From a bacterium (GTDB taxonomy: Bacteria; Nitrospirota; Thermodesulfovibrionia; Thermodesulfovibrionales; JdFR-85): 53,862 nucleotides of DNA. Position 1 is the stretch's first letter. Every line of letters begins with the position of its first letter. Of this stretch, positions 4,210-32,575 are shown one piece after another. The stretch is taken from contig BTTF01000001.1 in the NCBI GenBank assembly GCA_036244995.1, positions 1 through 53,862 on the forward strand, in the 5' to 3' direction. The notes beneath the pieces are model-generated. The model made no database searches and had not been told where the DNA came from. It was given only the letters and a program-made list of their open reading frames with translations. The position numbers and the translations under genes were made by a program.

Positions 4210-5388
4210 CTACTCCTCAAAGTCAATCTTGTAAGCAACATTCACGGTGCTGCCTGAAGAGTCAAGTGCATGGTAGTACTCAACCTCTATATTGCCGGAA
4301 GTCACAGGAATCTGGTCTGCACAGATAATCCGGTCTGTCCCTCCTGTTTCATACTCAATCCTCGTCTCCTGAGTAATGAGAACGGTCACACCTGAAACCG
4401 TTAAGGAATAGGCATCTGAATCAAAGGTGTACGCCGCAGCCTCCAGATCAGGCTGCACCGTCAGGCCGGTGAACTCGGTCACACTCCTGTCGGGCAGATC
4501 ACAGACCGCTGCAGCGATATCATCGTCACCGTCGACCTCAACCTTCGTGGCTACAAACCCGGTGCCATTCCAGGTTCCGTCAACCTCAACCTTCATCCCG
4601 ACCTGCAGATCAGAGATACCCGAAATCCCGCATATTGTCCTCTCGTCATCGTCATCACAGGTGAATCGAACAGTATCCCCGGCAGACACGGTAATGATAT
4701 TACTGTCGGGAATAAAGCCCTCTGCCTTTAACACGGTCAGGTCAAACCCTCCGGTGGTAAAGGACTGGATAATCCCCTTAAGCTCATAGTCGTCTTCCTT
4801 AATCTCCTGGTAGTTCTCATATTCAGAACCATCGGCATCGAGCACCACCTTTGCAGTCACGGTATTTGTGAGATCATCATACACAAACTGCTTGAGGTCG
4901 AAGTCAAGCACTACCCGCTCCGTACTCACCACATTGGAGGCCCCTGGTATGTCAATAACACATGTACCGTCATTACTGCAGGAGGTCCATGCATTCTCAC
5001 CGAAAACGGGATTGGGTGAAACCTTCACCCCTGCATTGTCAACAAGTATCAACTCCTTTCCAACGGTGATAAGTACATCGCTGTAGCTGCCCTCAGGCAG
5101 TGTTCCGAGCTTGTCGAGCACACCGCTCAATTCGCTCAGATCATAGGTGAGTCCCCGGGAATCCTCAAAGACCGTTACAGCCGAGCTATCCACGGCATTC
5201 ACAAACTCCACCTTGTAGATGGTCACGATAACCTGGTCGTAAGCATCCGTAACATCATCGGTAATGTAGACACTGGCTGTACGCGTGGTGGTCTCACCGC
5301 CGCCGCATGAGTAGAGCAGACCGGCAAAGGCCAACAAAAACGTTACAAGAACAACCTCCCTGAACCTTGATACCATTAAACGTTTCAT
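4210..5388 (-). CDS. Lipoprotein with a DUF4382-like N-domain and DUF5666-like C-terminal repeats
   Basis: Signal peptide plus lipobox (LLYSC). SVYITDDVTDAYDQVIVTIYKVEF...LTYDLSEL...LPEGSYSDVLITVG resembles DUF4382. VGMKVEVDGTWNGTGFVATKVEV resembles a DUF5666 repeat. Family names are from memory. Confidence 0.65.
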   Translation of the reverse strand: MKRLMVSRFREVVLVTFLLAFAGLLYSCGGGETTTRTASVYITDDVTDAYDQVIVTIYKVEFVNAVDSSAVTVFEDSRGLTYDLSELSGVLDKLGTLPEGSYSDVLITVGKELILVDNAGVKVSPNPVFGENAWTSCSNDGTCVIDIPGASNVVSTERVVLDFDLKQFVYDDLTNTVTAKVVLDADGSEYENYQEIKEDDYELKGIIQSFTTGGFDLTVLKAEGFIPDSNIITVSAGDTVRFTCDDDDERTICGISGISDLQVGMKVEVDGTWNGTGFVATKVEVDGDDDIAAAVCDLPDRSVTEFTGLTVQPDLEAAAYTFDSDAYSLTVSGVTVLITQETRIEYETGGTDRIICADQIPVTSGNIEVEYYHALDSSGSTVNVAYKIDFEE

Positions 5389-5442
5389 CTTTCTGCCTCC
5401 TTTCGATTTAGTTAGATCTTTCTTTGCAGCAACCCGACAAAG

Positions 5443-6885
5443 TCAGTTAATCCTCTCTATCTCAACCTCATCGGCAACAAAGACGCTGCCCTGATAGACC
5501 CCGCTTACCTCAACGATATCGCCGGGGTCCTTCGTCTCATTTATCGCATTAAGGAAATCGTTTGCGGTGGTTATTACATTGCCGTTCTCGTCCTCAAAAG
5601 TGACACCCTGACCGCTGACGTTAACATCCACACCGAGTATCGAAAAAGACGCTGTGGTGGATACCACCGAACCGGCATCGACCGGCCCGCTCAGACTGTT
5701 CTCAGTCTCTGAAGGGTTCAGCCTCACCACCTTTACCGCAACGACCCGACCGCCGTCGTCAACAAAACCTCCGACTTCGATGAGGTCGCCAACCTGGAGA
5801 TTATCAAGGGAAAAATTCCTCAACTGCAGGTCTGATTCATCATTAAAGATGGTACTGCTGTTGACGGTAATCTTGATACCGAAGACGGTGACCGCAGAGC
5901 TTTGAATATCCACATTCTCCACGGTCCCTTCAATCCCGACCTCTGTATTCTCATGGGAGAGGAACTCGACCTTCTCCGCCAGCAGCACACCGGCAGCGTT
6001 AACCGTCCCTTCCACTTCCAGCAGGACATTTACGGCCACATCACCCTGAAGGCCGTTTTCATATACTGTCTGGTCGTCCGTATAGACCCGCAGGCCGTTA
6101 ACCTCGAAATCATTCGCGGAGGTGACAGTTGTCACGATCCCCTCAATACCCATCTCATTACCTGGGAGCGCAGCTTCAACAGGGTCCTCCACTTCGATAT
6201 ACGACGCAACAAGCGTACCTGCTGACAGGGAACCCTTGACTTCCACAAAGTCACCGTTCTGGAACTGTGGCTGATCAGTAACGCCACTGTAGTCAATGGA
6301 CAATCCGTTTATCACAAATACACGCGAGACGGCATCAAAGGCCGAGACCACACCCTTGACCTCCTCACCTGAAGTCAGGGCCTTCAGTTCTATAAAAACA
6401 GCCCTTATATTGCCGGCAGCGTCAAAGAATCCGCTAACAACCACGGTATCTCCTGCAACAAGGTCAAGTAGGTTGCCGACCCCCTTGAATATCGTAGTTC
6501 CCTGGATCAGCACAGTCTGTCCCATAACAACAATCTGATCATTCACCGTATCGATAGACTGAACCGGCCCTATCACCTCTGGATCAAATGTGATGCTCAG
6601 GGCATTGGTCCCGCTCGCCTCGACTCTCACCTTCATACCCACATCAAGGTCGGCCTCCGTAACACCGGTATCATTGGCGGTTATTGCAGCCCCGGTGGTG
6701 CTGAACTCCACCCCGTTGACAAAGACACTGCCAAATCCCGTGATAACACCATTGTAAACCCCTGTCCCACTGATTCCACCTCCGGCAAGGTCTCCACCAC
6801 CACCGCTGCACGAACCCAGCAGTCCCAGCGCCAGCAGAACAACCACCAAACTCTTCCAACCCGATTTCAATCCAACGTTTAACAT
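5443..6885 (-). CDS. Lipoprotein built from about 5-6 DUF5666-like repeats
   Basis: Lipobox LLGSC. The pattern ...ITGFGSVFVNGVEF...VGMKVRVEASG... recurs about every 70 aa. I chose the ATG at 6885 (GGAGGG lies 9 nt upstream) over the TTG at 6915 used in the ORF track. Confidence 0.7.
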   Translation of the reverse strand: MLNVGLKSGWKSLVVVLLALGLLGSCSGGGGDLAGGGISGTGVYNGVITGFGSVFVNGVEFSTTGAAITANDTGVTEADLDVGMKVRVEASGTNALSITFDPEVIGPVQSIDTVNDQIVVMGQTVLIQGTTIFKGVGNLLDLVAGDTVVVSGFFDAAGNIRAVFIELKALTSGEEVKGVVSAFDAVSRVFVINGLSIDYSGVTDQPQFQNGDFVEVKGSLSAGTLVASYIEVEDPVEAALPGNEMGIEGIVTTVTSANDFEVNGLRVYTDDQTVYENGLQGDVAVNVLLEVEGTVNAAGVLLAEKVEFLSHENTEVGIEGTVENVDIQSSAVTVFGIKITVNSSTIFNDESDLQLRNFSLDNLQVGDLIEVGGFVDDGGRVVAVKVVRLNPSETENSLSGPVDAGSVVSTTASFSILGVDVNVSGQGVTFEDENGNVITTANDFLNAINETKDPGDIVEVSGVYQGSVFVADEVEIERIN

Positions 6886-6904
6886 GCTGAAAAACCCTCC
6901 ATTT

Positions 6905-7705
6905 TTATTCTTCAAAATAAAATACGCCTAACCCTAACTTTTTTCGTCCTGTACCCTGAACAGATGGCTCCATATCCCTGTCATACTGTGAGATAACCCT
7001 GTCCATTGACTCGACAAACTCAGCCGCCATATCTGAAATACGGCCTCTGACCTCAAGGTATACCTCAACGGGAATATTGTCATATGAGACCTTTCTCTGA
7101 AAAAAGGCATCTGAGGGATTACTTGCAATATTGTGATGTATAGTGGAGATGAGCTCGCTGACATCCCTGCCCATAATGCCGAACTTTTCCACTTCTCCCT
7201 TTTTCACTATATAACCCCTGTTCAATAATCTCACCTGCCTGTCGTTCATCTCCACAATTCCGGCCCTGAGCATTTCATCAAGGATTGCCCTTGGGGGGAC
7301 ATCCCCACTGTAAGCCCTGACAAGGAGAGAAAAGCTTTTTTCATCGTCTTCAAAAGGAAGCCGGGCCGGCTTCCCCGCGCCGTCAAGAAAACGGGGATCC
7401 TTAATCCATCCGCTTATCACCCTGGCTGCCCGGTTGTAACGTTCCGCAGCCCCCAGGTCATAAGGCGCCTCAATCTCTTTCATCCTCTTAACTTCCTTGC
7501 GGGAGAGGCCGGTAATGGTGGAGATACGTGATATGGTCTGTTTTCTGCCAGGCACACCAAAGTCTTCCGAGGCAACGTCGACATAAACCCACTTGGCGAT
7601 ATCAGCAAAAGTACCATATGGAATATTGTTTTTTAAAAGAACACGCATGAGTGGCCTCAGTAATTTTATCAGTGTTGAGGCTATTATCCGCTTTACGTTG
7701 TCCAT
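6905..7705 (-). CDS. Hypothetical protein with an HTH-like segment (possibly DUF6502 family)
   Basis: GRKQTISRISTITGLSRKEVKRMKE looks like a helix-turn-helix. I recognise no enzymatic motif. I moved the start to the ATG at 7705 (MDNVKRII) because the ORF-track TTG at 7741 is the -35 hexamer of a consensus promoter. Confidence 0.6.
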   Translation of the reverse strand: MDNVKRIIASTLIKLLRPLMRVLLKNNIPYGTFADIAKWVYVDVASEDFGVPGRKQTISRISTITGLSRKEVKRMKEIEAPYDLGAAERYNRAARVISGWIKDPRFLDGAGKPARLPFEDDEKSFSLLVRAYSGDVPPRAILDEMLRAGIVEMNDRQVRLLNRGYIVKKGEVEKFGIMGRDVSELISTIHHNIASNPSDAFFQRKVSYDNIPVEVYLEVRGRISDMAAEFVESMDRVISQYDRDMEPSVQGTGRKKLGLGVFYFEE

Positions 7706-7712
7706 ATTTGGT

Positions 7713-7741
7713 ATTATATTCCCAAATTTCAGGTTTGTCAA
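7713..7741 (-). promoter_or_regulatory. Perfect-consensus sigma-70 promoter (TTGACA-N17-TATAAT)
   Basis: On the minus strand, TTGACA is at 7741-7736, the spacer is 17 nt, and TATAAT is at 7718-7713. Then ACCAAAT precedes the ATG at 7705-7703, which implies a leaderless or near-leaderless mRNA. Confidence 0.65.
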
Positions 7742-11500: not shown

Positions 11501-12706
11501 TCATTGGGGCATAGGACAGCTCGGGAGTTCGGACTGTTCCTTTCTCACCGGTATATACCACAACAGACCATCCACAACCATGAGTATCCCCGCAACAATA
11601 AGGATGACATCAAATACCGACAATGAACTGAGCCCGAAATAGTGCAGCAGGCCGAGGCCGAGACTTGCAAAGGAAAAACCTGTCCGGATTAAGGCAAGCC
11701 CTGTCCTTGCCCGGGCATAGATGGTGCGGTAGCATGCAGCCATTGTCCGTTGTGCTCCAAGCACGCTCCTCTCCCGTGCAAGATGGGTGCGTTCCTTGCT
11801 GGATGGAGATGGGTAGAGAATTGTACAGTGGCTGGACAGCAAATCTGCAATACGGGCAAGCATGCTCTTCTTCATGGATATCTCAACATCAGTGGTTTCA
11901 ATAAGGTGATAGCCCTTTAGAAAGCCCATGGTTGCAGAGGTCATTCCCACAAGAGTTTGGCGTTCCGGGGGATTCATTTCAGATCTCCGTATCTTCAGGT
12001 ATCTTGATAGGCCAAAGAACCCGAGGAAAAATCCCGCAGCAATAATCGACCAGTAAAAGGGATATGTAATCGGCAGCTTGTGGGTTCGCATAAGGGTATT
12101 TGCTACGGCAATAAACCCGAGTCCCCACCTGAGGAAGGCAAGCCCGGTCCTTGCCGTTGCCATGTCGGTCCTGCAGCACGCCAGTCTCGTCCGCCACTGG
12201 GCCATGGTGGTGCGCCAGAAGGAAAGACCGGTCCTTTCGGTACCCCAGAGATAACCCGGCCTTGCATGAAGGAAGTCCTGGATAAACCACTGGATATCTT
12301 CTGCAAGGGCCACCCGGAATTCGTATTTCTCTGCCTTGATAAACCTCTTGGCCTCATCCAGTACCCCCGGATCTTCGGGATTGTTTGCCGCTATAATTAC
12401 CGTATCACCATCCATGATGACCGGAAACCACAGGCTTATGGAAAGCATGTCTCCATTAACCGCCGATAATAATCCGGGCGGTATGAGCATTCTCTCGTCA
12501 TACTCTATAGTGGGACATTGATAATACTCCGAAAGCGCCTTGAGCAAAACAAACCGCGGTACATCATACTCTCTGAGCAGAACTCTTTCAAGGTCGATGC
12601 TCCTTGCAACAGCCGTATGTTCTGCTTTACGGAGTTCCTCATCCGCCAGGATACCCCGTTCCACCAATATGAGAAATCTCTGCGATCCTGTGTTAGCGAG
12701 CATCAT
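11501..12706 (-). CDS. Membrane protein: T2SSE_N/MshEN-like N-domain fused to 2 DUF202 (YidH-like) modules
   Basis: The N-terminal ~150 aa (LVERGILADEELRKAE...YQCPTIEYDE...VIIAANNPED) resembles the GspE/PilB/MshE N-terminal domain. Two copies of RTxxAxxRTxxAxARTGLAxxRxG, each followed by two TM helices, follow it. The start is set at the ATGATG at 12706 (AGGTGG lies 9 nt upstream). Confidence 0.7.
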   Translation of the reverse strand: MMLANTGSQRFLILVERGILADEELRKAEHTAVARSIDLERVLLREYDVPRFVLLKALSEYYQCPTIEYDERMLIPPGLLSAVNGDMLSISLWFPVIMDGDTVIIAANNPEDPGVLDEAKRFIKAEKYEFRVALAEDIQWFIQDFLHARPGYLWGTERTGLSFWRTTMAQWRTRLACCRTDMATARTGLAFLRWGLGFIAVANTLMRTHKLPITYPFYWSIIAAGFFLGFFGLSRYLKIRRSEMNPPERQTLVGMTSATMGFLKGYHLIETTDVEISMKKSMLARIADLLSSHCTILYPSPSSKERTHLARERSVLGAQRTMAACYRTIYARARTGLALIRTGFSFASLGLGLLHYFGLSSLSVFDVILIVAGILMVVDGLLWYIPVRKEQSELPSCPMPQ

Positions 12707-14342
12707 GATTGAAACCCACCTTGTCCCAATAACGGGCCGGCCGGCCGTAATCAGGAATAATTGTTTCCATATCTCCAAGACAATAGGGGAATTGTCTCCT
12801 TATCTTTTCAGCCGGGATATTCCAGTAAAGTCCATCGACAATGACTACCAGCCCGATCACTATCAGTGCAATATTAAATATGGCCCATGCAATATTTGCA
12901 GTGCCGAAATAAACCAGAAGCCCCGTGCCCACCGCGCATATGCTTCTTCCAGTCCTGATAAATGCCATTCCCGTCCTTGATCGGGCCATAACCGTGCGGA
13001 GTCTTGCCATCATATTTCTTCTGTCTGCGAGCACTGTCCTTTCAAGGGCAAGTCCCGTGGTAGCCCATATGCCCGGCCAGCAGGAGGCCTTTACCTGGGA
13101 AAAACGCTTATGGAAATCGCCGGGACCTCCAATCACCCTGTGAACAGGAAGGGAAATGAAATCCCAGGCCTTCCGGCTCTTTTTTCTCCTCTTCACCGAT
13201 TCAAAACCCTCGACACCGGCACGGCGGCCAGGGAAATACCAGTAAAAGCCTTCCATGGCCATCATGATACCCGTCAGTATAAGGGCGGCATCAAATAACG
13301 TCCAGCGGCTGACGGGGAACTGCCTGAACAGCGCAATCCCAAGCCCGATAAAGACAATCCCCGTACGGGTAAAGGCAAGCCCTGTGCGCGCCCTTGCCAT
13401 CATCGTTCTGTAACATGCAAGGACCGTTCTTTCCTCAGCAAAATCCGTCCTGTCACTGGCAAGAAATCTGCGTCTCATCACAGGAGTAAGGTTATCCCAG
13501 TCAGCACGGAGTTTATCCGCTCCGTCAATGGTACCGGTACGCGTAAAAAAAGGGTTGTTGTCGGGGTTTTGAACCTCAAGCACCGTGGTCGCCCAGGTCG
13601 GAACTGTAGCAGTACAGTTTAAACGTTTCTTTCCGGCCTTCCGGGTCGGCAGGTAGCATCTGAATCCATTCACTGATAAAACAACCCCGGCTACTAAAAA
13701 TAATGCTTCGATTACGATTAAATACCCTGCACCGAAAATCCTGAGAAGCAGCAGGGCAATGGCTATAAAAGCTATCCCGGTGCGGAGGAAGGCAAGCCCT
13801 GTTCTGCCCTTTGCCATAGAGGTCCTGTAGCATGACATCAGGGAACGCCTGTCCGCAAGGAAAGTCCTGACCTTGGCAAGGGGGGTCCTGCCGCCCGAAA
13901 AAGGAAATCCCGGATTCACATCATTGTTGTTTTCAATAATCCTGACGAGGTCTGAAGGCAGGGCCACAATGAAATCGATTTTTTCCACGCCGAGGCTCTT
14001 TTTTATATCTTCAACTACCGCTGTGTCATCCGGCCTGTATGCAATCACTTCAGCCCTGTCCTGCATAACGGAAAGGGGAAACCAGAGAGCCTGCTTGAGC
14101 TTCTCCATGCCCATGCGTCTTGTGAGGAGGTAAGAAGCCATAACCTCCTCCTCATACTCTACAAAGGGATAACCGTAGAACCCGGAAAGACAGAACAGGA
14201 TCTCATGCTTTGGAATACCCCTGCTCATCAAAAGTTCTTCAGGGTATTTGCCTGAATCTTCCGATTCCTTTATGATCTCATCCAGATCTTCCCTGGTCAG
14301 TAATCCCCTGCTGACAAGTCTTTCAAATTTAGTATCCTGCAT
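12693..14342 (-). CDS. Membrane protein: T2SSE_N/MshEN-like N-domain fused to 3 DUF202 (YidH-like) modules; paralog of the downstream gene
   Basis: N-terminus LVSRGLLTREDLDEIIKESEDSG...GYPFVEYEEE...VIAYRPDD, then three DUF202 signatures (CYRTSMAKGRTGLAFLRTG, CYRTMMARARTGLAFTRTG, RLRTVMARSRTGMAFIRTG), each followed by a TM hairpin. Confidence 0.7.
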   Translation of the reverse strand: MQDTKFERLVSRGLLTREDLDEIIKESEDSGKYPEELLMSRGIPKHEILFCLSGFYGYPFVEYEEEVMASYLLTRRMGMEKLKQALWFPLSVMQDRAEVIAYRPDDTAVVEDIKKSLGVEKIDFIVALPSDLVRIIENNNDVNPGFPFSGGRTPLAKVRTFLADRRSLMSCYRTSMAKGRTGLAFLRTGIAFIAIALLLLRIFGAGYLIVIEALFLVAGVVLSVNGFRCYLPTRKAGKKRLNCTATVPTWATTVLEVQNPDNNPFFTRTGTIDGADKLRADWDNLTPVMRRRFLASDRTDFAEERTVLACYRTMMARARTGLAFTRTGIVFIGLGIALFRQFPVSRWTLFDAALILTGIMMAMEGFYWYFPGRRAGVEGFESVKRRKKSRKAWDFISLPVHRVIGGPGDFHKRFSQVKASCWPGIWATTGLALERTVLADRRNMMARLRTVMARSRTGMAFIRTGRSICAVGTGLLVYFGTANIAWAIFNIALIVIGLVVIVDGLYWNIPAEKIRRQFPYCLGDMETIIPDYGRPARYWDKVGFNHDAR

Positions 14343-14682
14343 AAACTCTTAGTATACTACAATATGGGACTTCAAGGAAATTCCGGGCTCACCCCCCCCT
14401 ATTACCCATTTCAGCTTAAGGCTGTTTTGGGTAACGGAGCCGACCTTGACAGGTCAGTCTGACCACATCTTGCACAGACGATTGTACCCCCCCACGCATC
14501 CTTTGCAAAAGCTTTACCGCGGGATCGTCAAAACACTCCTCATGCCATTCATACAGATGGGCACTGTATGCCTGTTTTCTTGTAAAAAGGGGTATAATAG
14601 TCAGCAGAAAGATATCCGGGTGCTGCCGGGATAAGCTTATCTTTATGCCGCTACCGGTTGACACACAGTCACACTTCCAAGA

Positions 14683-21022: not shown

Positions 21023-21058
21023 CCATGTTGCGTTTAAAAACGTTCTGTGGAGGTTTAC

Positions 21059-21553
21059 GTGAAGGCAAAAGATATTATGGAGCAGGTAAAGGATTATTTA
21101 TCTCCTGACGACACCATCAGGAACGCCGTAAACAAGATGAGAGTTGTGAAGAGAGACGATGGTATAGTTGGCTTGAAAGGTATGATAGTGCTCGACAGCG
21201 AAGGCAACCTGGTCGGAATGGTTTCGGTTAAAGACATACTCAAGGCGATTATACCTTTTTATATGACGATGACGGAACTTGGGGAGTTTACATGGGAGGG
21301 GATGCTTGCGGAGATGACAAAAAAGGTGGCCGACAGGAAGGTGGAGGAGATAATGGTGAAGGATGTAATAACAGTTTCCGGGGATGCCCCGCTCATGGAG
21401 TGTGCCGATCTTATTATCAAACATAATCTCCAGAGGGTTCCTGTATTAAATAAAGACAAGAAAGTCGTTGGCATCATCTACGTGCGGGACCTCTATCATG
21501 CAATTGTAAAAGTTCTCCTGGATGACAAGGGGGAAGGGGTACATAATCTATGA
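21059..21553 (+). CDS. CBS-pair domain protein (module 1)
   Basis: Two CBS motifs (VKAKDIME... and VEEIMVKDVITV...LQRVPVLN...GIIYVRDL). The GTG start at 21059 is preferred: GGAGG lies 5 nt upstream and the N-terminus matches copy 2. The stop overlaps the next start (ATGA). Confidence 0.8.
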   Translation: MKAKDIMEQVKDYLSPDDTIRNAVNKMRVVKRDDGIVGLKGMIVLDSEGNLVGMVSVKDILKAIIPFYMTMTELGEFTWEGMLAEMTKKVADRKVEEIMVKDVITVSGDAPLMECADLIIKHNLQRVPVLNKDKKVVGIIYVRDLYHAIVKVLLDDKGEGVHNL

Positions 21554-22920
21554 CTCACGAAGCTGCCGCGGCATCCCAGCCCTTTGTAATGGACACAACC
21601 TTCTGGACTGCCACGACCATATTCCTGATCTCCTACGTTGTCATAATATCGGAAAAGGTACACAAGACAGTGGTTGCAGTCTTCGCTGCATCCCTGATGC
21701 TTGTGTTGAAAATACTTTCGCAGTATGAGGCTTTTCACGTTGAGGAATTAGGGGTGGACTGGAATGTTATCTTCCTGCTTATCGGAATGATGATAATAAT
21801 CAATCTTATGCGACCGACCGGTTTTTTTGAATATATAGCCATTAAAAGTGCAAAGGCCGGCAAGGGTGACCCCATGAGGATAATGATAATATTCGCGATT
21901 ATTACAGCAGTGTTGAGCGCGCTTCTTGACAATGTTACCACAGTGCTCCTGCTTGCCCCGGTCACTCTCCTGATTGCAGATGCCCTTGAGGTTGATCCGA
22001 TTCCGTTCCTGATTGTTGAGGCCATTGCATCCAATATCGGAGGCACTGCCACACTTATCGGTGACCCTCCAAATATCATGATTGCCTCAAAGGCAAAACT
22101 CAATTTCATGGATTTCATATACAATCTTACGCCGATTGTTATCATATTGATGGTTGTCCTTCTCCTTATTATCAAGATAGTCTTTGGCAGGAAACTGAAG
22201 ACCAGAGAAGAACTCAAACAGAGAATAATGCAGATGAACGAAAACGAGGCAATAAAAGACCCGTTAATGCTCAAAAAATCTCTCTTCGTCCTCGCCCTCG
22301 TACTTGTCGGGTTTGTATTTCATGGAACACTTCACCTCCAGCCTGCCACAGTAGCACTCTTCGGTGCAGGCCTGTTGCTTCTGCTGTCGGGCACCCATGA
22401 ACCACACCACGTCCTTGCCGAAGTCGAGTGGCCCACCATATTTTTCTTTATAGGTCTCTTCATACTTGTCGGTGGAGTGGTAAAGGTTGGGCTCATTAAA
22501 TGGATGTCTCTAAAAATGCTCGCCCTGACGCAGGGCAATCTCCTTGCAACAAGCATGATCGTAATGTGGTTCTCTGCCATAGCATCCGCAATCGTTGACA
22601 ATATTCCCTATGTTGCCACCATGAATCCCCTGATAATCGATATGGCAAAACAGATGTGGCCCCAGGAGACAGGACTGGCCCTCCTCAGGCATCCCGACCT
22701 GCTGCCTATCTGGTGGTCATTGGCACTCGGGGCATGTCTTGGGGGTAACGGCTCACCAATTGGCGCCTCAGCAAACGTAATAGTAGTTGGTATGGCCGAG
22801 AAGGCAGGGAAAAAGATATCCTTCATGAGATTTGTTGCATATGGATTCCCGATAATGCTTTTGACTGTCTTTATCTCCATGATATACGTGTGGCTGAGGT
22901 ATTACGTCCTTAAATGGTAA
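21550..22920 (+). CDS. ArsB/NhaD-superfamily (ion transporter superfamily, SLC13/CitMHS-like) permease (module 1)
   Basis: 456 aa with about 10-12 TM helices. LLDNVTTVLLLAPV and GGTATLIGDPPNIMIAS are typical of ArsB/NhaD/YbiR-type permeases. The substrate cannot be inferred. Confidence 0.75.
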   Translation: MTHEAAAASQPFVMDTTFWTATTIFLISYVVIISEKVHKTVVAVFAASLMLVLKILSQYEAFHVEELGVDWNVIFLLIGMMIIINLMRPTGFFEYIAIKSAKAGKGDPMRIMIIFAIITAVLSALLDNVTTVLLLAPVTLLIADALEVDPIPFLIVEAIASNIGGTATLIGDPPNIMIASKAKLNFMDFIYNLTPIVIILMVVLLLIIKIVFGRKLKTREELKQRIMQMNENEAIKDPLMLKKSLFVLALVLVGFVFHGTLHLQPATVALFGAGLLLLLSGTHEPHHVLAEVEWPTIFFFIGLFILVGGVVKVGLIKWMSLKMLALTQGNLLATSMIVMWFSAIASAIVDNIPYVATMNPLIIDMAKQMWPQETGLALLRHPDLLPIWWSLALGACLGGNGSPIGASANVIVVGMAEKAGKKISFMRFVAYGFPIMLLTVFISMIYVWLRYYVLKW

Positions 22921-23054: not shown

Positions 23055-23111
23055 TTGACTAAGGATTTCCCCTGGCATTATGATACCCTGTATGGTTGCG
23101 TAATGCAATAT
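23055..23111 (+). promoter_or_regulatory. Sigma-70-like promoter plus conserved box, copy 2
   Basis: TTGACT 23055-23060, 18-nt spacer, TATGAT 23079-23084, and the box TTGCGTAATGCAATAT at 23096-23111. The upstream AAAATAAAAAATC(C/G)CCA(C/T)TT stretch is shared with copy 3. Confidence 0.55.
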
Positions 23112-23149
23112 TTGCTGTTTCAGTAAATCACAACCAAATGGAGGGTCAT

Positions 23150-23638
23150 GTGAAGGCGAAAGATATAATGGAACCGGTTAAAGATACCTTGACCCCGGAG
23201 ACCACCCTGAAAGATGCGGTTAACAGGATGAGGGTTGCCGGAAGGGGAGATGGCCGGGCCGGAGCAAAGGGTATGATTGTCCTTGATAATGGGAAGCTTG
23301 CAGGTATTGTCTCAATCAAGGATATCCTTAAGGCTATTATACCATCATACATGACCCTAACCGAACTCGGCGAGTTCACCTGGGACGGGATGCTCGAGGA
23401 GATGGCAAAAAAGGTCTCCGACAAGAAGGTAGAGGAGATCATGACAAGGAATGTGATAACTGTTTCAGAGGACGCCCCGCTCATGGAGTGTGCCGATCAT
23501 GTCGTTAAGTACAACCTCCAGAGGATTCCAGTGCTGAACAGAGATAAGAAGGTAGTTGGTATTATATACGTCCGGGATATCTATTATGCGATTGTCCGGG
23601 CCCTTTTTGACAATTTTGATAAGGAGGAAAAGAGATGA
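23150..23638 (+). CDS. CBS-pair domain protein (module 2)
   Basis: Paralog of 21059-21553, identical at most aligned positions by eye. GTG start at 23150 with GGAGGG 4 nt upstream. ATGA overlap with the next gene. Confidence 0.8.
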   Translation: MKAKDIMEPVKDTLTPETTLKDAVNRMRVAGRGDGRAGAKGMIVLDNGKLAGIVSIKDILKAIIPSYMTLTELGEFTWDGMLEEMAKKVSDKKVEEIMTRNVITVSEDAPLMECADHVVKYNLQRIPVLNRDKKVVGIIYVRDIYYAIVRALFDNFDKEEKR

Positions 23639-25005
23639 CACATGAAGCTGCCACAGCCTCACAGTCTTTTGTTATGGACACAACCTTCTGGACAGCCACT
23701 ATAATATTCCTCCTCGCCTATGCATTAATTATTTCAGAGAAAGTACATAAAACGGTTGTAGCCATCTTTGCTGCAGCCCTGATGATTGTGCTCAAGATAC
23801 TGGAGCAGAAAGAGGCCTTTCATTCTGAAGTGTTAGGTATAGACTGGAATGTCATATTCCTCCTCCTTTCAATGATGATAATAATCAATCTCATGAAACC
23901 AACCGGTTTTTTTGAGTACATTGCCATTAAAAGCGCTAAACTGGGAAAGGGCGAGCCAATGAGGATAATGACCATATTTACAATTGTTACGGCTATCCTG
24001 AGCGCCATTCTTGACAATGTTACCACAGTGCTCCTTATTGCCCCTGTTACCCTGCTCATCGCAGATGCACTTGAGATCGACCCGATACCCTTTTTGATTG
24101 CCGAGGCGCTCGCCTCCAATATAGGCGGCACCGCCACACTAATAGGTGACCCTCCCAATATCATGATAGCCTCAAAGGCACATTTTGATTTCATGGACTT
24201 TATCTATAACCTGACACCTGCAATCATTGTAGTAATGGCTGCCTTCCTCTTTATCCTGAAAATAATGTTCGGCAAGAAGCTCCATGTCAGGCCTGAACTG
24301 AAACAAAGGATATTGGAAATGAATGAAAGAGACGCTATAAAAGACCCGCTTATGCTTAAAAAGTCGCTCTTTGTCCTCTCAATTGTTATAGTTGGTTTTG
24401 TCCTGCATGGCATGTTCAACTATGAACCGGCAACAGTGGCCCTGTTTGGAGCAGGACTTCTACTACTGCTTTCAGGCACTCACGAACCACACAAAGTCCT
24501 TGCCGAGATTGAGTGGCCGACCATATTCTTTTTTATGGGACTCTTTATCATCATCGGGGGTGTCGTCAAGGTCGGGCTTATTAAATGGATGTCCATAGAG
24601 GTGCTTGCAATTACGCATGGAAACATGTTTGCAACGAGCATGCTAATAATGTGGTTTTCTGCCGTTGCCTCTGCCTTTGTAGATAATATTCCCTACGTTG
24701 CAACAATGAATCCCTTAATAATCGATATGGCTCATCAGGTCTGGCCGCACCTTCAGGGCTTAAAACTCCTGCATAATCCTGAACTCATGCCCGTTTGGTG
24801 GTCTCTATCTCTTGGCGCATGTCTTGGGGGTAACGGCACGGCTATCGGGGCATCTGCAAATGTGATTGTAATCGGGCTGGCCGAACGGGCAGGAAAGAAG
24901 ATATCCTTTATAAGGTTTATGGCCTACGGAATGCCCGTTATGATACTAACGGTATTTATATCTACTATTTATGTCTGGCTGAGATACTATATATTAAAGA
25001 TATAG
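23635..25005 (+). CDS. ArsB/NhaD-superfamily permease (module 2)
   Basis: 456 aa, the same length as 21550-22920 and collinear with it. The large majority of residues are identical by eye. Confidence 0.75.
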   Translation: MTHEAATASQSFVMDTTFWTATIIFLLAYALIISEKVHKTVVAIFAAALMIVLKILEQKEAFHSEVLGIDWNVIFLLLSMMIIINLMKPTGFFEYIAIKSAKLGKGEPMRIMTIFTIVTAILSAILDNVTTVLLIAPVTLLIADALEIDPIPFLIAEALASNIGGTATLIGDPPNIMIASKAHFDFMDFIYNLTPAIIVVMAAFLFILKIMFGKKLHVRPELKQRILEMNERDAIKDPLMLKKSLFVLSIVIVGFVLHGMFNYEPATVALFGAGLLLLLSGTHEPHKVLAEIEWPTIFFFMGLFIIIGGVVKVGLIKWMSIEVLAITHGNMFATSMLIMWFSAVASAFVDNIPYVATMNPLIIDMAHQVWPHLQGLKLLHNPELMPVWWSLSLGACLGGNGTAIGASANVIVIGLAERAGKKISFIRFMAYGMPVMILTVFISTIYVWLRYYILKI

Positions 25006-25130: not shown

Positions 25131-25182
25131 TATCGTTGCAATAATCAACAGCACTGAATAGATGAATAAGGAGGCAATATTG

Positions 25183-26148
25183 ATGTCACGCACTTTGCGA
25201 AGGTTTCTCTTCCTTTTTGCAGTAGTGGCTATAGTTACAGGATTTTACAGCATTGCATTCGGTGAAGAACAGATAGTAGAGGTTGCTCAGAACGGAAGCG
25301 CCATTGTTTGGTGGATGTGGCCGGTAATCCTGTTTGTCTTTACCTTTTTTCTCGGTATCCTGGCAGTTGTTGCAGGTGTTGGAGGCGGGGTGCTGTTTGT
25401 TCCTATAGTAAGCAGTTTTTTCCCCTTTAACCTTGATTTTGTAAGAGGTGCCGGCCTGCTGGTGGCCCTTACAGGAGCGCTCTCTGCAGGTCCCGGATTG
25501 CTCAAGCGCGGACTCGCAGATCTCAGACTTGCACTCCCTATGGCACTTATAGCCTCCACATGCTCAATCTTTGGCGCCATGGTCGGCCTTGCACTCCCTA
25601 CGAATGTAGTCCAGACCGCACTTGGGGCCACGATCATCATGATCGTTATCATTATGGCTACAGCCAAGCGCTCGGATTTTCCGGAAGTTAAGCAGGCTGA
25701 TACACTCTCTTCAGTCCTCAGGATAACAGGCGTTTATTATGAGGAGTCTGCCGGCAAGCAGATTAACTGGCAGATTCACAAAACACCCCTTGGTCTCGCA
25801 CTCTTTATAGTAATAGGCTTTATGGCAGGCATGTTCGGCCTCGGTGCCGGATGGGCAAACGTACCCGTCCTTAATCTTCTCCTCGGCGCACCACTGAAAA
25901 TCTCCGTGGCAACGAGCGTATTTCTGCTTTCCATAACTGATACAGCAGCAGCATGGGTATACATTAACAAGGGAGCGGTGCTGCCATTGATTGCAGTCCC
26001 TTCCGTTGCCGGAATGATGCTCGGCACGAGAATAGGTGTTAGAATACTGGCAAGGGCAAAGCCCAAGGCAGTAAAATGGATTGTCGTAACCATTCTCTTC
26101 CTTGCCGGATTCAGAGCACTCTTAAAAGGTCTTGGAATATGGGGGTGA
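25183..26148 (+). CDS. TauE/SafE-family anion exporter-like membrane protein
   Basis: Multi-TM protein with GVGGGVLFVP in the N-terminal half and a repeated G-rich motif (FGLGAGWANVP) in the C-terminal half, typical of TauE/SafE (DUF81). The start is set at the ATG at 25183 (AAGGAGG lies 8 nt upstream). Confidence 0.75.
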   Translation: MSRTLRRFLFLFAVVAIVTGFYSIAFGEEQIVEVAQNGSAIVWWMWPVILFVFTFFLGILAVVAGVGGGVLFVPIVSSFFPFNLDFVRGAGLLVALTGALSAGPGLLKRGLADLRLALPMALIASTCSIFGAMVGLALPTNVVQTALGATIIMIVIIMATAKRSDFPEVKQADTLSSVLRITGVYYEESAGKQINWQIHKTPLGLALFIVIGFMAGMFGLGAGWANVPVLNLLLGAPLKISVATSVFLLSITDTAAAWVYINKGAVLPLIAVPSVAGMMLGTRIGVRILARAKPKAVKWIVVTILFLAGFRALLKGLGIWG

Positions 26149-26154
26149 CAAATT

Positions 26155-26568
26155 ATGAGTAATAAAACGAAGCCATCGGAAGAACAGCTGAAATATGCAT
26201 CCGTCCTCCAAACAATATCCCTTGGGGGGCTGGCGCTCCTGGTCGTCGGGTTTTTTGTTTATTTAAGCGGCATCCTTCCAACCCTGATTCCGGCTTATGA
26301 AATCCCGGAATACTGGGGAATGAGGGTACACGATTTCGTTGAAAAAACAGGAATGCCAACCGGATGGGACTGGGTACCTTTACTTAATCATGGGGATATA
26401 GTAAGTTTTCTGGGAATAATCCTGTTGGCTGCAGGCACACTCGTCTGCTTTGCAGTTATACTTCCTAATTTTATACGCAAAAAAGATACGCCTTTTGTGA
26501 TTATTATCATTGTGCAAATCCTGGTCCTCTTGCTTGCAGCAAGCGGGTTTATTACAGGGGGTCATTAA
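26155..26568 (+). CDS. Small integral membrane protein (DUF1634-like?)
   Basis: 137 aa with 3-4 predicted TM helices, 6 nt downstream of the TauE gene. The family name is uncertain. Confidence 0.5.
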   Translation: MSNKTKPSEEQLKYASVLQTISLGGLALLVVGFFVYLSGILPTLIPAYEIPEYWGMRVHDFVEKTGMPTGWDWVPLLNHGDIVSFLGIILLAAGTLVCFAVILPNFIRKKDTPFVIIIIVQILVLLLAASGFITGGH

Positions 26569-26570
26569 AT

Positions 26571-27407
26571 ATGAATACACTTGATGCGTGCCCGGATATA
26601 AGGCTTGAGAGACTCCTCTTATGTACAGACGGTTCGGAATTCAGCGAAGGTGCTATCAGGGAGGCTATAAGCATTGCAAAAAGATGCAACAGCAAACTGT
26701 ATGTCATCTCTGTAGTGGAAGTAAACCCTGAATTGGAGGTGTATGCCCCCGGACTTGCAGAAAAGATAGAAGAAAATACAAGAACACACCTCGATGACAT
26801 AAAGGAAAGGGCTGAAAAAGAGGGGGTTACTTGTGAAAAAATAATACACAAAGGCGAGAAGACTTACAGCTACATAGTTAAGGAGACGTCCAGACTAAAG
26901 GCTGACCTGATCATAATGGGCAGACACGGCAGGACAGGCATTAAAAGACTAATGATGGGAAGCGTTACCGCAAGGGTCATTGGACAGACTGCATGCAATG
27001 TGCTTGTTGTGCCAAGGGCGGCAGTCTTTAAGTGTAAAAAGATACTGATTGCTACAGATGGCTCGGAATTCAGCGAGAAAGCAGTTCATGAGGCCCTCGA
27101 TATTGCTGCGGCGTGTGAGAGTGAGGTTGTTATCGTATCGGTGGCTTCAAGCGACTCCGAAATCAAGGAAGCAGAGACATTTGTCCAGGAGGCCCGTAAA
27201 ACGGCCGAGAAAAAGGGGTTAAAAGTTACGACCGGAATACCCGTGGGCACTGTCTATGAGATAATCATTGATGTTGCTGAAAAGGAAAATATTGACCTTA
27301 TCGTTGTTGGAAGCCACGGCAGAACAGGACTTAAGAGGCTATTGATGGGAAGTGTAGCAGAAAGGGTTATCGGTTATGCCTCCTGTACGGTATTGGTAGT
27401 CAAGTAA
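26571..27407 (+). CDS. Tandem universal stress protein (2 x UspA domain)
   Basis: 278 aa. Two USP domains, each ending with the ATP-binding-type motif G(R/S)HGRTG(I/L)KRL(M/L)MGSV...VL(V)V. Confidence 0.85.
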   Translation: MNTLDACPDIRLERLLLCTDGSEFSEGAIREAISIAKRCNSKLYVISVVEVNPELEVYAPGLAEKIEENTRTHLDDIKERAEKEGVTCEKIIHKGEKTYSYIVKETSRLKADLIIMGRHGRTGIKRLMMGSVTARVIGQTACNVLVVPRAAVFKCKKILIATDGSEFSEKAVHEALDIAAACESEVVIVSVASSDSEIKEAETFVQEARKTAEKKGLKVTTGIPVGTVYEIIIDVAEKENIDLIVVGSHGRTGLKRLLMGSVAERVIGYASCTVLVVK

Positions 27408-27427
27408 TAATATATTGCAACCTGTTA

Positions 27428-28786
27428 TTATTCTTCCATGTCATATCTCTTAATCTTTCTCCAGAGGGATACCCTGTCTATTCCAAGCACCTGGGCTGCC
27501 TTTGACTTATTGCCACCAAACTCTTTCAGCACCCATTGTATGTATGCCTTCTCCTGATCTTCAAGGGATGGGACTTTCCCTCCACGCTTCCTGAACGTCC
27601 TGATACTCAATTCCCTGAGATCATCAGGGAGATGTAACGTTTCAAGGGTTTTCCCTTTAGAGAGTGCGATCCCCCTCTCGATGATATTCTCCAACTCCCT
27701 TACATTGCCCGGAAAGTTGTAACTGTTAAGCACGCCTGACATATCATCGGAAATATCAGACACATCCTTTCCCATGATCGAAGAGTATTTCCTGAGGAAG
27801 TGATAGCACAGCAACGGGATATCTCCCTTTCTCTCCGAGAGTGGCGGCAGGTGGAGCGTTACTACATTCAGACGGTAATAAAGGTCCTGCCTGAACTCAC
27901 CGCTCTCGATAACTTCCTGTATATTCCTGTTGGTGGCTGCAATGAACCTCACATCCACCTTTACCGGTTCAGTGCCCCCAACACGCTGGTATTCTCTTTC
28001 CTGTACAACCCTCAGGAGTTTTACCTGCATGGATGGGCTCATTTCCGTAATTTCGTCCAGAAACAAAGTACCCTTGCTTGCCACCTCGATAAGACCTTTT
28101 TTAAGGAATGTTGCACCTGTAAATGCCCCCTTCTCATGTCCAAAAAGCTCGTTTACGAGGAGCCCCCCTGAAAAAGCCCCGCAGTTGATGGCAATAAAGG
28201 GGCCTTCGGACCTCCTGCTGTAAAGGTGGACATACCTTGCCACCAGTTCCTTACCCGTTCCGCTTTCACCCGTGATAAGGATATTACAGTCGGTTGGCGC
28301 AACATCCCTGGCTGTATCCAGTATCCTGAGCATCCGGGGGTCCTGGGTGATTATCCTCACCCTGTCCGTGATGTTCTCAAGACTCTCCCTGAGCTGCCTG
28401 TTCTCTTTCTTGAGCCTTACCTTTTCCGAGGCCTCCCTTACGATCTTTCTTACCTCATCCAGCTTAAAGGGCTTTGCTATATAATGGTAAGCCCCGTGTT
28501 TCATTGCCTCTATGGCAGTCTCAACCGTGGCATATCCAGTAATCATTATTACCTCTAAATCCGGGTTGGATTCCTTGCATCTTTTGAGTATCTGCATTCC
28601 GTCAACCTTCTCCATCTTCAGGTCGGTCAGAACAATGTCAAACTCATGTCTGCTTAATAATTTTAAGGCGTTCTGCCCGTTTAAGGTTGTTTTTATCTCG
28701 TAACCTTCCTTGTTCAAGACATGCTCAAGGTTCTTTATGGCTATCTTTTCGTCATCAACAATCAGAAGTTTTATTCTGTTTTCCAT
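27428..28786 (-). CDS. Sigma-54-dependent response regulator (NtrC family), apparently orphaned
   Basis: REC domain (LLIVDDE...LTDLKM), AAA+ domain with GESGTGKE and the GAFTGA loop (EKGAFTGA), and a C-terminal Fis-type HTH (KSKAAQVLGIDRVSLWRKIK). Confidence 0.9.
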   Translation of the reverse strand: MENRIKLLIVDDEKIAIKNLEHVLNKEGYEIKTTLNGQNALKLLSRHEFDIVLTDLKMEKVDGMQILKRCKESNPDLEVIMITGYATVETAIEAMKHGAYHYIAKPFKLDEVRKIVREASEKVRLKKENRQLRESLENITDRVRIITQDPRMLRILDTARDVAPTDCNILITGESGTGKELVARYVHLYSRRSEGPFIAINCGAFSGGLLVNELFGHEKGAFTGATFLKKGLIEVASKGTLFLDEITEMSPSMQVKLLRVVQEREYQRVGGTEPVKVDVRFIAATNRNIQEVIESGEFRQDLYYRLNVVTLHLPPLSERKGDIPLLCYHFLRKYSSIMGKDVSDISDDMSGVLNSYNFPGNVRELENIIERGIALSKGKTLETLHLPDDLRELSIRTFRKRGGKVPSLEDQEKAYIQWVLKEFGGNKSKAAQVLGIDRVSLWRKIKRYDMEE

Positions 28787-29224
28787 CCTCGTCTCCTTTC
28801 AGTGGGAGTTTTATGATAAAGGTTGTTCCTGCACCCGACCGGCTTTTCAGGTCAATAGTCCCGTTGTGCTGCTTTATAATCTCATGACTGACATACAGCC
28901 CGAGCCCCGTACCCATTCCAACATCCCTTGTTGTGAAAAACGGGTCAAATATCTTGTTGATTATCTCCTCGGGGATACCCCTGCCTGTATCCGAAACCCG
29001 GACCTCAACCTCTTTTTTGTCCCTGTTCTCTCCGGCCGTTATTATGATCTTGCCTTCCACTCCCTTATTACTATTAAATTGACGAATATGATTGAGGCGA
29101 TGAAAAGTATAAGCAGAAAGCTTCCTGTATATCCCAGCTTTATCTTCTGCAGTATACTCCTGTTCTTAACAAACATAAAATATAGTAACATTCGATATTG
29201 CAAATTGCAACTATAGCGCTGCAT
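28755..29224 (-). pseudogene. Decayed sensor histidine kinase (TM segment plus the HATPase_c end only)
   Basis: Two short ORFs in different frames. ORF 29224-29042 encodes one TM helix. ORF 29060-28755 encodes only the G1/G2 ATP-binding part (VSDTGRGIP...[17 protein letters not shown]...GTTFIIKLP), paralogous to the C-terminus of the kinase at 29337-30896. No DHp/H-box fits into the 470 nt available. Confidence 0.65.
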
Positions 29225-29336
29225 CCAAAACTTCGGATATGATACAATATATAAAGTAGATACAGTTTTTGCAAGGCTCTAAACCCGGCGAAAATGGATA
29301 ATATCTTCATTAAAAGAAAAGGAACTTAATAGGTCC

Positions 29337-30896
29337 GTGTCGATAAAAAAGAAAATAATTCTCAGTTTCTTTATCAGTTTTTCAATCATTGCAACACTTG
29401 CCGTAGCAGCTTATCTGGACTTTCGCGAGACCAGAACCGAGTTTAAATATCTTGAACTTGCAGAAAGCATCAGGGGTAAGACCTTACAGTTAAGAAGGCA
29501 TGAAAAAAACTTCTTTCTTTACGGAGACAGCAAGGAAATTGATCTTATTCACAGATATATAGGAGAGATTGAAGCGCTTATTAAAGATGCCAAGCCTTAT
29601 ACCCGCAACGACAATCTTGATAAATTGAATGTCAAACTGAAGGAATTCAGTCTGCAGTTTGAAAACATTACCGCCATGGCTTCCGGTTTCCATGAAGAGT
29701 TGGCAAGCCTAAAGCCAAAAAAACCGTCATATCTTTTTTTAATACCCATAATTAAAGCCACTTTTCTGGAACACCCCCTGCAAAATGCACAACTCCTGAA
29801 GCGATTTTTTTATATATCCAAAAAAGATGACTATATTACATTCCTCAAAAGACTGGGGAATGAGATTAAAGATATGAGGAAGACCGGCGAAAAAATTATC
29901 GGGATATCTAAAGAACTGGATAGGGGTGCCAGGGAAAGGGTGCAGAATATTATTAATGTTACCAAGGTAGCTGTTCTGGTATTCTTGCCTATATCCTTCC
30001 TGATCGGGTTTGTATCGCTATTTTATATCAGCCAGAACATAGTTAACAGGTTGAAGAAACTGATGGAGACGATTGAAAAAAGTGGTGCCGGTTTCTTTTC
30101 TCCCATGCCTTTTCCGGCAGGCCATGACGAGGTCAGTACATTAATAAGGACATATAATAATATGGCAGAGGCATTACATGCGCGGGAGGAACTACTCAGG
30201 ACAAAAGAAGAAGAGTTGATTCAGAGTAAAAAGCTTGCAGCCATAGGCACCCTTGCATCCGGAGTGGCTCACGAATTAAACAACCCCCTGAATAACATTC
30301 ATATATCGGCACAGATATTGGCAAAGGAGATGGGTGAGGACTGTACGGGTATTATAGAGGAGACAGTTGATGATATATTGAGTCAGACTTTCCGGGTAAA
30401 GAAAATAGTTGCAAATCTGCTGGATTTTGCAAGGTCAAAGGAGCCGGACTTTCAAGAAATAAACATCGTTGATATTATACAAAAGACATATGCTCAGGCA
30501 CAGAAAATAACGGCATTCAAGGATATAGAGTTTGTATTAGAATCTCCGCCTGAAGTCTTCCTCCAGGCGGACCAGGTCCAGATTGAACGGGTCTTCGTCA
30601 ATCTCTTCACCAACGCAGCTGATGCCATGGAGGGCAAAGGAAAACTTCATGTGAAGGTTTTTCCCGAAGAAGATACGGTTAAAATAGAGGTGACGGATAC
30701 AGGTAACGGGATACCTCCCGAGGTTAAAGACAAGATTTTTGACCCCTTCTTTACAACCAGGGACAGGGGAACCGGTCTCGGCCTGTCCATAGTATATAAC
30801 ATCATCAAAAACCATGGCGGCAGTATAACCGTGGAGAGCACGGCAGGAGAAGGGACCACATTCAGAATCTTCCTGCCGAGGTACAGAGAGGTTTAA
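29337..30896 (+). CDS. Sensor histidine kinase with an extracytoplasmic helical sensor domain
   Basis: 519 aa. TM1, about 170 aa of helical region ([13 protein letters not shown]), TM2, a linker, H-box [12 protein letters not shown], then the N, G1 and G2 boxes (DTGNGIP, GTGLGLS). GTG start. Confidence 0.85.
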
Positions 30897-32234: not shown

Positions 32235-32241
32235 AGCTCAA

Positions 32242-32510: not shown

Positions 32511-32575
32511 AAAATGAAACACCAGACACCATGTCTCCTCCTTAAAATATCCTTTAAAATCAAGCTATTAGCGGT

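Follow-up and report, generated by a model that had tools for sequence, protein, structure and literature searches.

Paired membrane proteins of Thermodesulfovibrionia combine MshEN-like domains lacking the c-di-GMP motif with arginine-laddered DUF202 hairpins

Introduction

What does an N-terminal domain of the kind found on secretion ATPases do when it is joined to a row of DUF202 membrane modules in place of an ATPase? The question is raised by two adjacent minus-strand genes, here called A and B, in a 53,862-nucleotide stretch of DNA (the window; contig BTTF01000001.1, positions 1 to 53,862, assembly GCA_036244995.1) from a Nitrospirota bacterium of the Thermodesulfovibrionia. DUF202 is widespread in bacteria, yet we know of no bacterial member with an assigned function, the eukaryotic polyphosphate channel being to our knowledge its only understood representative. 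A first-pass annotation of the window, made from the sequence alone, described the pair as an uncharacterised membrane signalling or gating device, left binding of cyclic di-GMP (c-di-GMP) open and saw meaning in the neighbouring comEA and comM genes. We find that A and B are strictly paired and linked to signalling genes, that a canonical c-di-GMP receptor is very unlikely and that the comEA/comM setting is incidental. The DUF202 modules of both proteins are preceded by conserved ladders of arginines, and we tentatively favour a role for the pair as a regulated conduit for anions.

Results

An overlapping, strictly paired set of paralogous genes

Two overlapping open reading frames (ORFs) had been proposed on the minus strand; both are present in the ORF list of the window, where together they fill positions 11501-14342. 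The boundaries of gene A (12693..14342; ATG start, 549 residues) hold as first drawn, and from its ORF, Pfam matches, homologues and AlphaFold model we assign to it an MshEN-like domain, three arginine-ladder DUF202 hairpins and a small conserved C-terminal tail. The start of gene B had to be moved. The listed ORF opens with a TTG at 12778 and would encode 425 residues; orthologues recovered in the homologue search are mostly 400-417 residues long, and a Shine-Dalgarno-like AAGGTGGG (12715-12722) sits 8 nucleotides 5' of an ATG at 12704-12706. Because of these orthologue lengths and of the AAGGTGGG at the right distance, we assign the start to the ATG at 12706, which gives a product of 401 residues (11501..12706) with an MshEN-like domain and two arginine-ladder DUF202 hairpins, on the basis of orthologue lengths, Pfam, AlphaFold and BLASTP. 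Read directly from the sequence, the junction of the two genes (12693..12722) has the B ATG ahead of the end of the A stop codon (TAA, 12693-12695), an overlap of 14 nucleotides in this window. A start codon overlapping the preceding stop region is the usual signature of translational coupling.

The two products share 32% identity over 384 residues spanning the N-domain and two modules (BLASTP, E = 2e-55) and, judged by sequence, are the paralogues that the first-pass annotation took them to be. More than 1000 homologues were found for each, which places their conservation far beyond chance as far as sequence comparison goes; both are real proteins under strong constraint. For A and B alike, the best 120 homologues match over essentially the whole protein, with 60-96% identity; their sources are metagenome genomes of Nitrospirae, Thermodesulfovibrionales and Dissulfurispiraceae. 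The family is narrow in a 50%-identity library, with 45 clusters at E <= 1e-30. In a set of species-representative genomes 245 stretches encode a relative, the best 80 of which are nearly all Nitrospirota, with a few labelled Deltaproteobacteria, Desulfocapsaceae or Betaproteobacteria; a separate look-up placed an A-B pair in a Dissulfurimicrobium genome as well (locus L002).

Pairing was surveyed by tblastn over 83 non-duplicate loci, nearly all from Thermodesulfovibrionia. B lies directly after A on the same strand at every one of them (83/83), bearing out the expectation that the two genes are conserved together, and no natural A-B fusion occurred among the homologue search matches. Tandem A-type genes precede B in L006/L024, L019, L028 and L032, where the second A has an N-terminal extension (568 residues).

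Homologues are named only 'DUF202 domain-containing', 'YidH', 'hypothetical' or 'type II secretion protein', the last of which is an over-call for these genes; the JGI label for the homologues of the window is 'uncharacterized membrane protein YidH (DUF202 family)'. There is no family-level NCBIfam model for A or B, no curated family covers either protein, and a literature search found no paper that names both MshEN and DUF202; one that combined Thermodesulfovibrionia with polyphosphate gave no relevant title or abstract. The combination of MshEN with repeated DUF202 is undescribed in any paper or curated family found, in agreement with its first description as uncharacterised.

Conserved arginine ladders run into every DUF202 hairpin

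The Pfam DUF202 model (PF02656; cut-off 23.4 bits) matches A at 55.6 bits in three stretches, the best at residues 173-235, and B at 25.4 bits in two stretches. We modelled A and B as single chains with AlphaFold, obtaining a predicted local distance difference test (pLDDT) score of 80 and a predicted template modelling (pTM) score of 0.70 for A (69 homologues), and values of 76 and 0.53 for B (63 homologues). After the N-domain the models show three (A) or two (B) long helical hairpins; together with the Pfam stretches they support the module counts first proposed, and counts of 3 and 2 are retained in homologues down to ~30-50% identity. The first helix of each hairpin, 49-55 residues long, is predicted to start in the cytosol and continue unbroken as far as the first hydrophobic segment. 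Each hairpin has its two ends on the cytoplasmic side and an outer turn of 3-6 residues, with almost nothing of A or B exposed outside the membrane. An architecture survey that used a single DUF202 module as query scored 12 candidates and gave three short matches.

The repeated 'RTxxAxxRT' signature noticed in the first-pass annotation is present, and can be sharpened to an exact heptad array, R-T-x-L-A-x-x, with five or six heptads preceding every hairpin. In A, module 1 (residues 150-237; 13632..13895, minus strand like all the features that follow) carries six R-T/S heptads, with arginines at 152, 159, 166, 173, 180 and 187, on a helix (152-203) continuous with the first transmembrane helix (TM1); a short turn and the TM2 helix (209-237) complete the hairpin. 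Module 2 (287-387; 13182..13484) has five R-T heptads (R298-R326) and helices at 287-341 and 348-387, and module 3 (425-517; 12792..13070) five R-T/N heptads (R435-R463) and helices at 425-479 and 484-517, the arginines of both again advancing in steps of seven. In B, six heptad arginines, the last in an R-W rung, span R158-R193 of module 1 (157-244; 11975..12238), and six R-T/S/N heptads span R306-R341 of module 2 (303-393; 11528..11800); each module comprises two long helices, and TM2 of the second holds an invariant Asp. The C-terminal tail of A (518-549; 12696..12791) has invariant P519, Y520, C521, E526, Y532, G533 and W539, and its short beta strands are predicted to pair with strands of linker 1 (255-268), at a pLDDT of mostly 50-66.

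Among the 69 A and 63 B homologues the 28 heptad arginines of the two proteins are 95-100% conserved, 26 of them being strictly invariant. Position a of the heptad is Arg, b is Thr, Ser or Asn, d is Leu or Met and e is Ala or Ser; at f and g, the polar residues of the cytoplasmic heptads give way to hydrophobic ones in the last two heptads, at the point of entry into the membrane. The a/b/d/e face is thus conserved without interruption from cytosol to bilayer, and the opposite face shifts from a solvent type to a lipid type. The five cytoplasmic extensions carry a net charge of ~+22, and the N-domains, at -10 (A) and -9 (B), are the only strongly acidic parts of the two proteins.

The ladder falls in register with the basic residues of the VTC channel

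The statement in the first-pass annotation that DUF202 has no established function is outdated, as the family PF02656 includes the VTC polyphosphate polymerase/channel through its membrane domain, for example in the SPX-VTC-DUF202 architecture (PMC12388464). Cryo-electron microscopy shows this domain as a pentamer with pseudo-symmetry, in which three copies of Vtc1 are joined by one Vtc3 and one Vtc4 and a pore is lined by five TM1 helices. Two basic rings, made up of K24 and R31 of Vtc1 (i, i+7) with the residues equivalent to them, are needed for polyphosphate translocation, and an acidic helix latches the basic mouth of the channel, a precedent for an acidic plug (PMC9911596; bioRxiv 10.1101/2023.01.27.525886).

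For comparison we used a reconstructed Vtc1 sequence, validated by its Pfam match and by the residue numbers in these papers. It matches PF02656 at 2e-17 over residues 24-84, at the same model positions as A 173-235; Vtc1, YidH and A (173-235) are all matched by this one model in the same register. A MAFFT alignment containing this sequence pairs K24 and R31 with R173 and R180 of A, and with the equivalent rungs in all five modules. By analogy, the ladder would represent the two-ring filter of VTC extended to five or six rings.

The N-terminal domains have the MshEN fold without the c-di-GMP contacts

In both models the chain starts with an alpha/beta domain of ~140 residues, divided into a four-helix N-subdomain and an alpha/beta C-subdomain (A residues 1-145, 13908..14342; B residues 1-146, 12269..12706). 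The Pfam MshEN model (PF05157) scores 33.5 bits in A (residues 56-138) and 38.3 bits in B against a gathering cut-off of 23.1. Foldseek matched these domains to MshE-N (5HTL), PilF GSPII-B (8PDK), PilF GSPII-A (9G1W), Xanthomonas citri PilB-N (7LKO, in complex with PilZ) and XpsE-N (2D28), with target-normalised TM-scores of 0.60-0.72 (0.69 for B against 5HTL) and a probability of 1.00, and the A-family profile matches PilF GSPII-B by sequence as well (E = 2.6e-10). The assignment of a T2SSE_N/MshEN-like domain is thereby confirmed in both Pfam score and fold. In contrast to the secretion ATPases, Pfam detects no T2SSE ATPase domain (PF00437) in A or B, and the PilB model TIGR02538 covers just residues 37-170 of the 425-residue TTG-start B ORF, at 18 bits versus a cut-off of 675.

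The receptor motif for c-di-GMP consists of two tandem 24-residue copies of RLGxx(L/V/I)(L/V/I)xxG(L/V/I)(L/V/I)xxxxLxxxLxxQ, with a relaxed form given by Wang et al. as [RKPN]hGxxhhxx[GAS]hhxxxxhxxxhxx[QNKRYWST] (PMC5013675). We set the motif register by hidden Markov model alignment to PilF GSPII-B, in which G13 of A corresponds to Gly10 of the motif, and inspected the columns of the homologue alignments (69 sequences for A). In motif I of A, RLG is replaced by x-K-F (T or K at x, Phe in 68/69) and the Gln position is Ser or Ala; in motif II the corresponding residues are Y-P-E (Glu in 67/69) and Tyr. B has x-R-F and E/D-L-E in place of RLG, with Ala and Tyr at the Gln positions. The Arg, Gly and Gln that contact c-di-GMP are therefore replaced in both half-motifs of both proteins, and the substitutes are themselves conserved. 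The first-pass annotation had already remarked on the missing RLG; the Gln and the second half-motif are missing as well. The hydrophobic core and Gly turn of motif I are retained.

As a regular expression, the relaxed motif matches 0/120 homologues of A and 0/120 of B, and does match a consensus control; the NCBIfam c-di-GMP_motif model gives a weak match, at 15.4 bits versus a cut-off of 38. [quoted passage not shown] Canonical c-di-GMP binding by the A and B N-domains, which had been left open, is very unlikely from their sequences, because the contacts are replaced, none of the 240 homologues fits the relaxed motif and the less deviant PilF GSPII-A does not bind. No GGDEF, EAL or PilZ gene occurs in the conserved gene cluster, and no c-di-GMP riboswitch there or upstream of A. 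The nearest relatives of the N-domain outside DUF202 proteins are GAF-MshEN-T2SSE ATPases, from which the motif is absent too, and motif-less domains of this fold are known to dock proteins, PilB-N binding PilZ and the N1 domain of GspE/EpsE binding GspL/EpsL (PMC8389850). A and B are a clean example of an 'MshEN' match in Pfam that does not imply c-di-GMP sensing.

Most relatives of the pair stand in a signalling operon

To count operon partners we used the 54 loci with enough downstream sequence. In 47 of them A and B are followed by a HAMP-HisKA-HATPase kinase, a single-domain CheY-like response regulator and a phosphoenolpyruvate (PEP)-synthase-like protein of ~870 residues. Of the genes in the cluster the response regulator is conserved best, with 79-95% identity among loci that carry it adjacent to the pair. 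The PEP-synthase-like partner, exemplified by L004 14880-17510 and with an equivalent gene in 47 loci, has clear ATP-grasp and swivelling-His domains; its first 136 and last ~290 residues match nothing in Pfam or the PDB. In the window and in L007, from an uncultured Thermodesulfovibrio, the kinase, regulator and phosphotransferase are not adjacent to the pair. L007 is 96% identical and shares the gene order NhaA / A / B / ComEA of the window.

The comEA, comM and EPS (exopolysaccharide) transferase neighbourhood, which the first-pass annotation had taken as meaningful, is not conserved. A ComEA-like gene lies near the pair in 4/83 non-duplicate loci (L002, L003, L007 and L029) and in the window, in two separate arrangements, that of window and L007 and that of L002, L003 and L029, the latter representing one other lineage. 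The comM and sugar transferase genes are kept near the pair only in L007, the closest relative of the window and the only locus to repeat the whole setting. We rejected the comEA link as a conserved feature on these counts (a ComEA-like gene in just 4/83 loci plus the window); to judge from gene order, the comEA/comM/sugar-transferase setting is specific to the lineage of the window and incidental. No conserved A/B cluster contains pilus, secretion or competence-channel genes. PADLOC assigned no defence-system family (0) to A, B or the PEP-synthase-like partner, and Rfam scans found no riboswitch or other RNA element in the region (E <= 1) or in the whole window (gathering threshold).

The protein library also contains a further, uncharacterised type of protein (P0328, P0338 and P0354) in which 15-25 consecutive 'ERTxLAx' heptads precede one DUF202 hairpin. 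In P0304 a heptad-DUF202 hairpin is fused to a C-terminal receiver domain with 46% identity to the regulator of the A/B operon (E = 3e-33). This fusion is a Rosetta-stone hint, from sequence, that a CheY-like domain may act directly on heptad-DUF202 modules. A precedent is known in the pilus motor PilB1, to which response regulators bind (bioRxiv 10.1101/2021.06.11.447907; PMC11181946).

Other features of the window

Upstream of A the window has a G8 tract (14391-14398) and a G7 tract (~14488-14494), the latter within the spacer of a promoter-like site, TTTGCA-17-TACAAT. We considered both tracts as candidates for phase variation and rejected them, as neither is kept in the 96%-identical L007, which also lacks ~60 nucleotides there. 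At positions 25162-35196 a HAMP kinase and sigma-54 regulators are surrounded by TauE-family transporters, by Usp genes and by small unknown ORFs. A set of this type (a ~165-residue ORF, TauE, Alph_Pro_TM, Usp, Usp) stands directly upstream of A-B in L001 (6288-9875) and close to the pair in L002 (3019-5320), which may reflect a loose functional or syntenic link.

Elsewhere, a two-gene unit, encoding a CBS-pair protein and then a CitMHS/ArsB-type anion transporter (456 residues each), occurs in two tandem copies on the plus strand (21047-22920 and 23096-25005), in what looks like a recent tandem duplication. On the minus strand (4210-7741) a DUF6502 gene is followed by two genes for DUF5666-repeat proteins, one also with DUF4382, forming an uncharacterised three-gene set. 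Positions 44091-53675 contain Rnf-type genes (RnfC, RnfD, an FMN-binding subunit and an RnfB-like gene), then on the opposite strand Fer4_22 proteins and a gene resembling a NiFe-hydrogenase large subunit, all of it energy metabolism that is ordinary in this lineage.

Discussion

Our tentative explanation of these features is that A and B together make up a heteromeric conduit or vestibule, lined with arginines, which would take an anion or polyanion and be regulated by way of the acidic MshEN-like domains; as part of it, the two might be co-translated paralogous subunits of one inner-membrane complex, a proposal that we hold just as tentatively. By analogy with the yeast VTC DUF202 domain, the conserved a/b/d/e stripe would be a helix-helix or lumen face, and the five hairpins (3 + 2) would build an arginine-ringed vestibule and a conduit for an anion or linear polyanion. 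The acidic domains (net -10 and -9), facing helices of ~+22, would be docks or gates for a protein partner and not nucleotide sensors. In most relatives the partner pathway would be the co-operonic HAMP histidine kinase, CheY-like regulator and PEP-synthase-like phosphotransferase. Polyphosphate is, again by analogy, the only substrate with a precedent. In its most specific form the proposal becomes improbable: a bacterial counterpart of VTC, in which the DUF202 units make a pseudo-pentameric (3 + 2) pore and a vestibule of 28 arginines guides a linear polyanion, for example polyphosphate, through the cytoplasmic membrane. The two-component system would then switch the pore when its CheY-like regulator docks on the degenerate MshEN domains, and the PEP-synthase-like enzyme would supply or energise the substrate. 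Were it true, it would be the first prokaryotic polyanion translocase of such a kind and the first function for a bacterial DUF202 protein.

Several observations weigh against a conduit. A profile of 38 module sequences has no match among all PDB chains at E <= 10, hhalign of the modules to Vtc1 gives 1.7% probability, and no VTC chain is among the top 50 Foldseek matches listed for the A or B model; since the profile search and hhalign gave no direct similarity, the VTC link rests on the shared Pfam model. The helical parts resemble, weakly, ABC-exporter membrane domains (TM-score ~0.13) or de novo four-helix bundles and maquettes in Foldseek. The units of A and B are two-TM hairpins concatenated in two chains, whereas VTC has five separate three-TM subunits, and the E30-R83 inter-subunit ionic lock of VTC is not kept, the E30 position being Gly, Ala or Ser in all five modules. 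AlphaFold packs the hairpins of each chain into a long closed bundle of their own and gives no structural evidence for a pentamer or pore; being a prediction for monomers, this packing speaks neither for nor against a hetero-oligomeric ring. The conserved acidic residues of TM2 could simply pair with membrane-proximal arginines. Four loci have two copies of A before B (3 + 3 + 2 modules), the pair has no consistent link to a gene for polyphosphate, transport or a substrate, and the relatives in which 15-25 heptads precede one hairpin resemble coiled-coil stalks more than they do the vestibule of a channel. Nearly as likely as a conduit, in our view, is a membrane-anchored signalling scaffold or adaptor that transports nothing: the hairpins would be anchors, the heptad helices rigid coiled-coil stalks or binders of anionic lipid, and the MshEN-like domains would recruit the phosphorylated CheY-like regulator or the PEP-synthase-like enzyme, making the pair an output platform of the two-component system. 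Such a scaffold would suit the conserved operon with its kinase and single-domain regulator, the receiver-DUF202 fusion in P0304, the closed bundle of long helices in each model, the stalk-like relatives with very long ERT-heptad arrays, the docking roles of degenerate MshEN domains elsewhere and the near absence of any part of A or B outside the membrane. However, an anchor has no need of five hairpins in which Arg, Thr, Gly and acidic residues in or near the bilayer are invariant, a coiled-coil core does not typically bear 28 invariant arginines, uncompensated, along one face of its helices, and the sole DUF202 assembly of known structure is a pore.

Two further explanations we consider very doubtful. 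A membrane device gated by c-di-GMP, bound perhaps non-canonically by the MshEN domains so as to control the DUF202 core, would account for the fold, for the c-di-GMP-bound GSPII-B and MshE-N being the closest solved structures, for the retained hydrophobic core and Gly turn of motif I and for the sub-threshold NCBIfam match (15.4 bits versus 38). It is hard to reconcile with conserved Phe, Glu and Tyr where Arg, Gly and Gln contacts are expected in both halves of both proteins, with the relaxed motif in 0/240 homologues, with the failure of the less deviant PilF GSPII-A to bind and the 10-30-fold cost of Gly-to-Ala, and with a conserved cluster and A upstream region devoid of GGDEF, EAL and PilZ genes and of c-di-GMP riboswitches. 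Less probable still is an accessory role in the machinery for type II secretion, type IV pili or DNA uptake, an idea prompted by the 'type II secretion protein' annotation and by the comEA/comM neighbours. The T2SSE_N-type domain, its GAF-MshEN-T2SSE ATPase relatives and a ComEA-like gene beside the pair in two arrangements (window/L007 and L002/L003/L029) are in its favour, but A and B have no ATPase domain, their conserved clusters have no pilus, secretion or competence-channel genes, ComEA-like genes accompany just 4/83 non-duplicate loci and the window, and conservation of comM and of the sugar transferase extends no further than the closest relative.

If the conduit that we tentatively favour does carry an anion or polyanion, the pair would be the founding case of a new class of regulated conduits in bacteria, and the role of bacterial DUF202/YidH proteins would become directly testable. 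It is a tractable bacterial DUF202 system, with five concatenated units in two chains and a much enlarged basic 'selectivity' ladder; its regulatory domains are borrowed from secretion ATPases with the nucleotide site stripped, and most relatives have a dedicated kinase, regulator and phosphotransferase.

A and B can be compared with several known systems. With the MshEN domains of MshE, PilF and PilB, their best PDB matches and above the Pfam cut-off, they share the fold of four-helix N-subdomain and alpha/beta C-subdomain, but no ATPase follows in A or B and both 24-residue motifs are without the Arg, Gly and Gln contacts. PilF GSPII-A, X. citri PilB-N and the XpsE/EpsE N-domains are closer in that they too have the MshEN fold without the c-di-GMP motif and serve protein-contact or structural roles; theirs stand on secretion or pilus ATPases, those of A and B on polytopic membrane proteins. 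The P0328, P0338, P0354 and P0304 proteins have the same heptad, (E/x)-R-T-x-L-A-x, running into a DUF202 hairpin, and differ in that just one hairpin follows 15-25 heptads, most of which have Glu ahead of the Arg, and in that they have no MshEN domain. Escherichia coli YidH shares the DUF202 signature 'ERTxLAWxRT' followed by a TM hairpin, but is a single 115-residue, three-TM module with two RT rungs and no soluble domain; the one hint at its function is a screen match unconfirmed by a D-alanine export assay (PMC10299036). VTC, finally, differs in having two basic rungs against the five or six of A and B, and in its SPX and TTM polymerase domains, which are absent from A, B and the conserved operon. 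It shares with the pair the Pfam family and model positions, basic i, i+7 residues at the cytoplasmic end of TM1, an acidic element facing a basic channel mouth, and a total of five DUF202 units, two with cytoplasmic regulatory domains, to which the 3 + 2 = 5 modules of A and B bear a likeness that is suggestive only.

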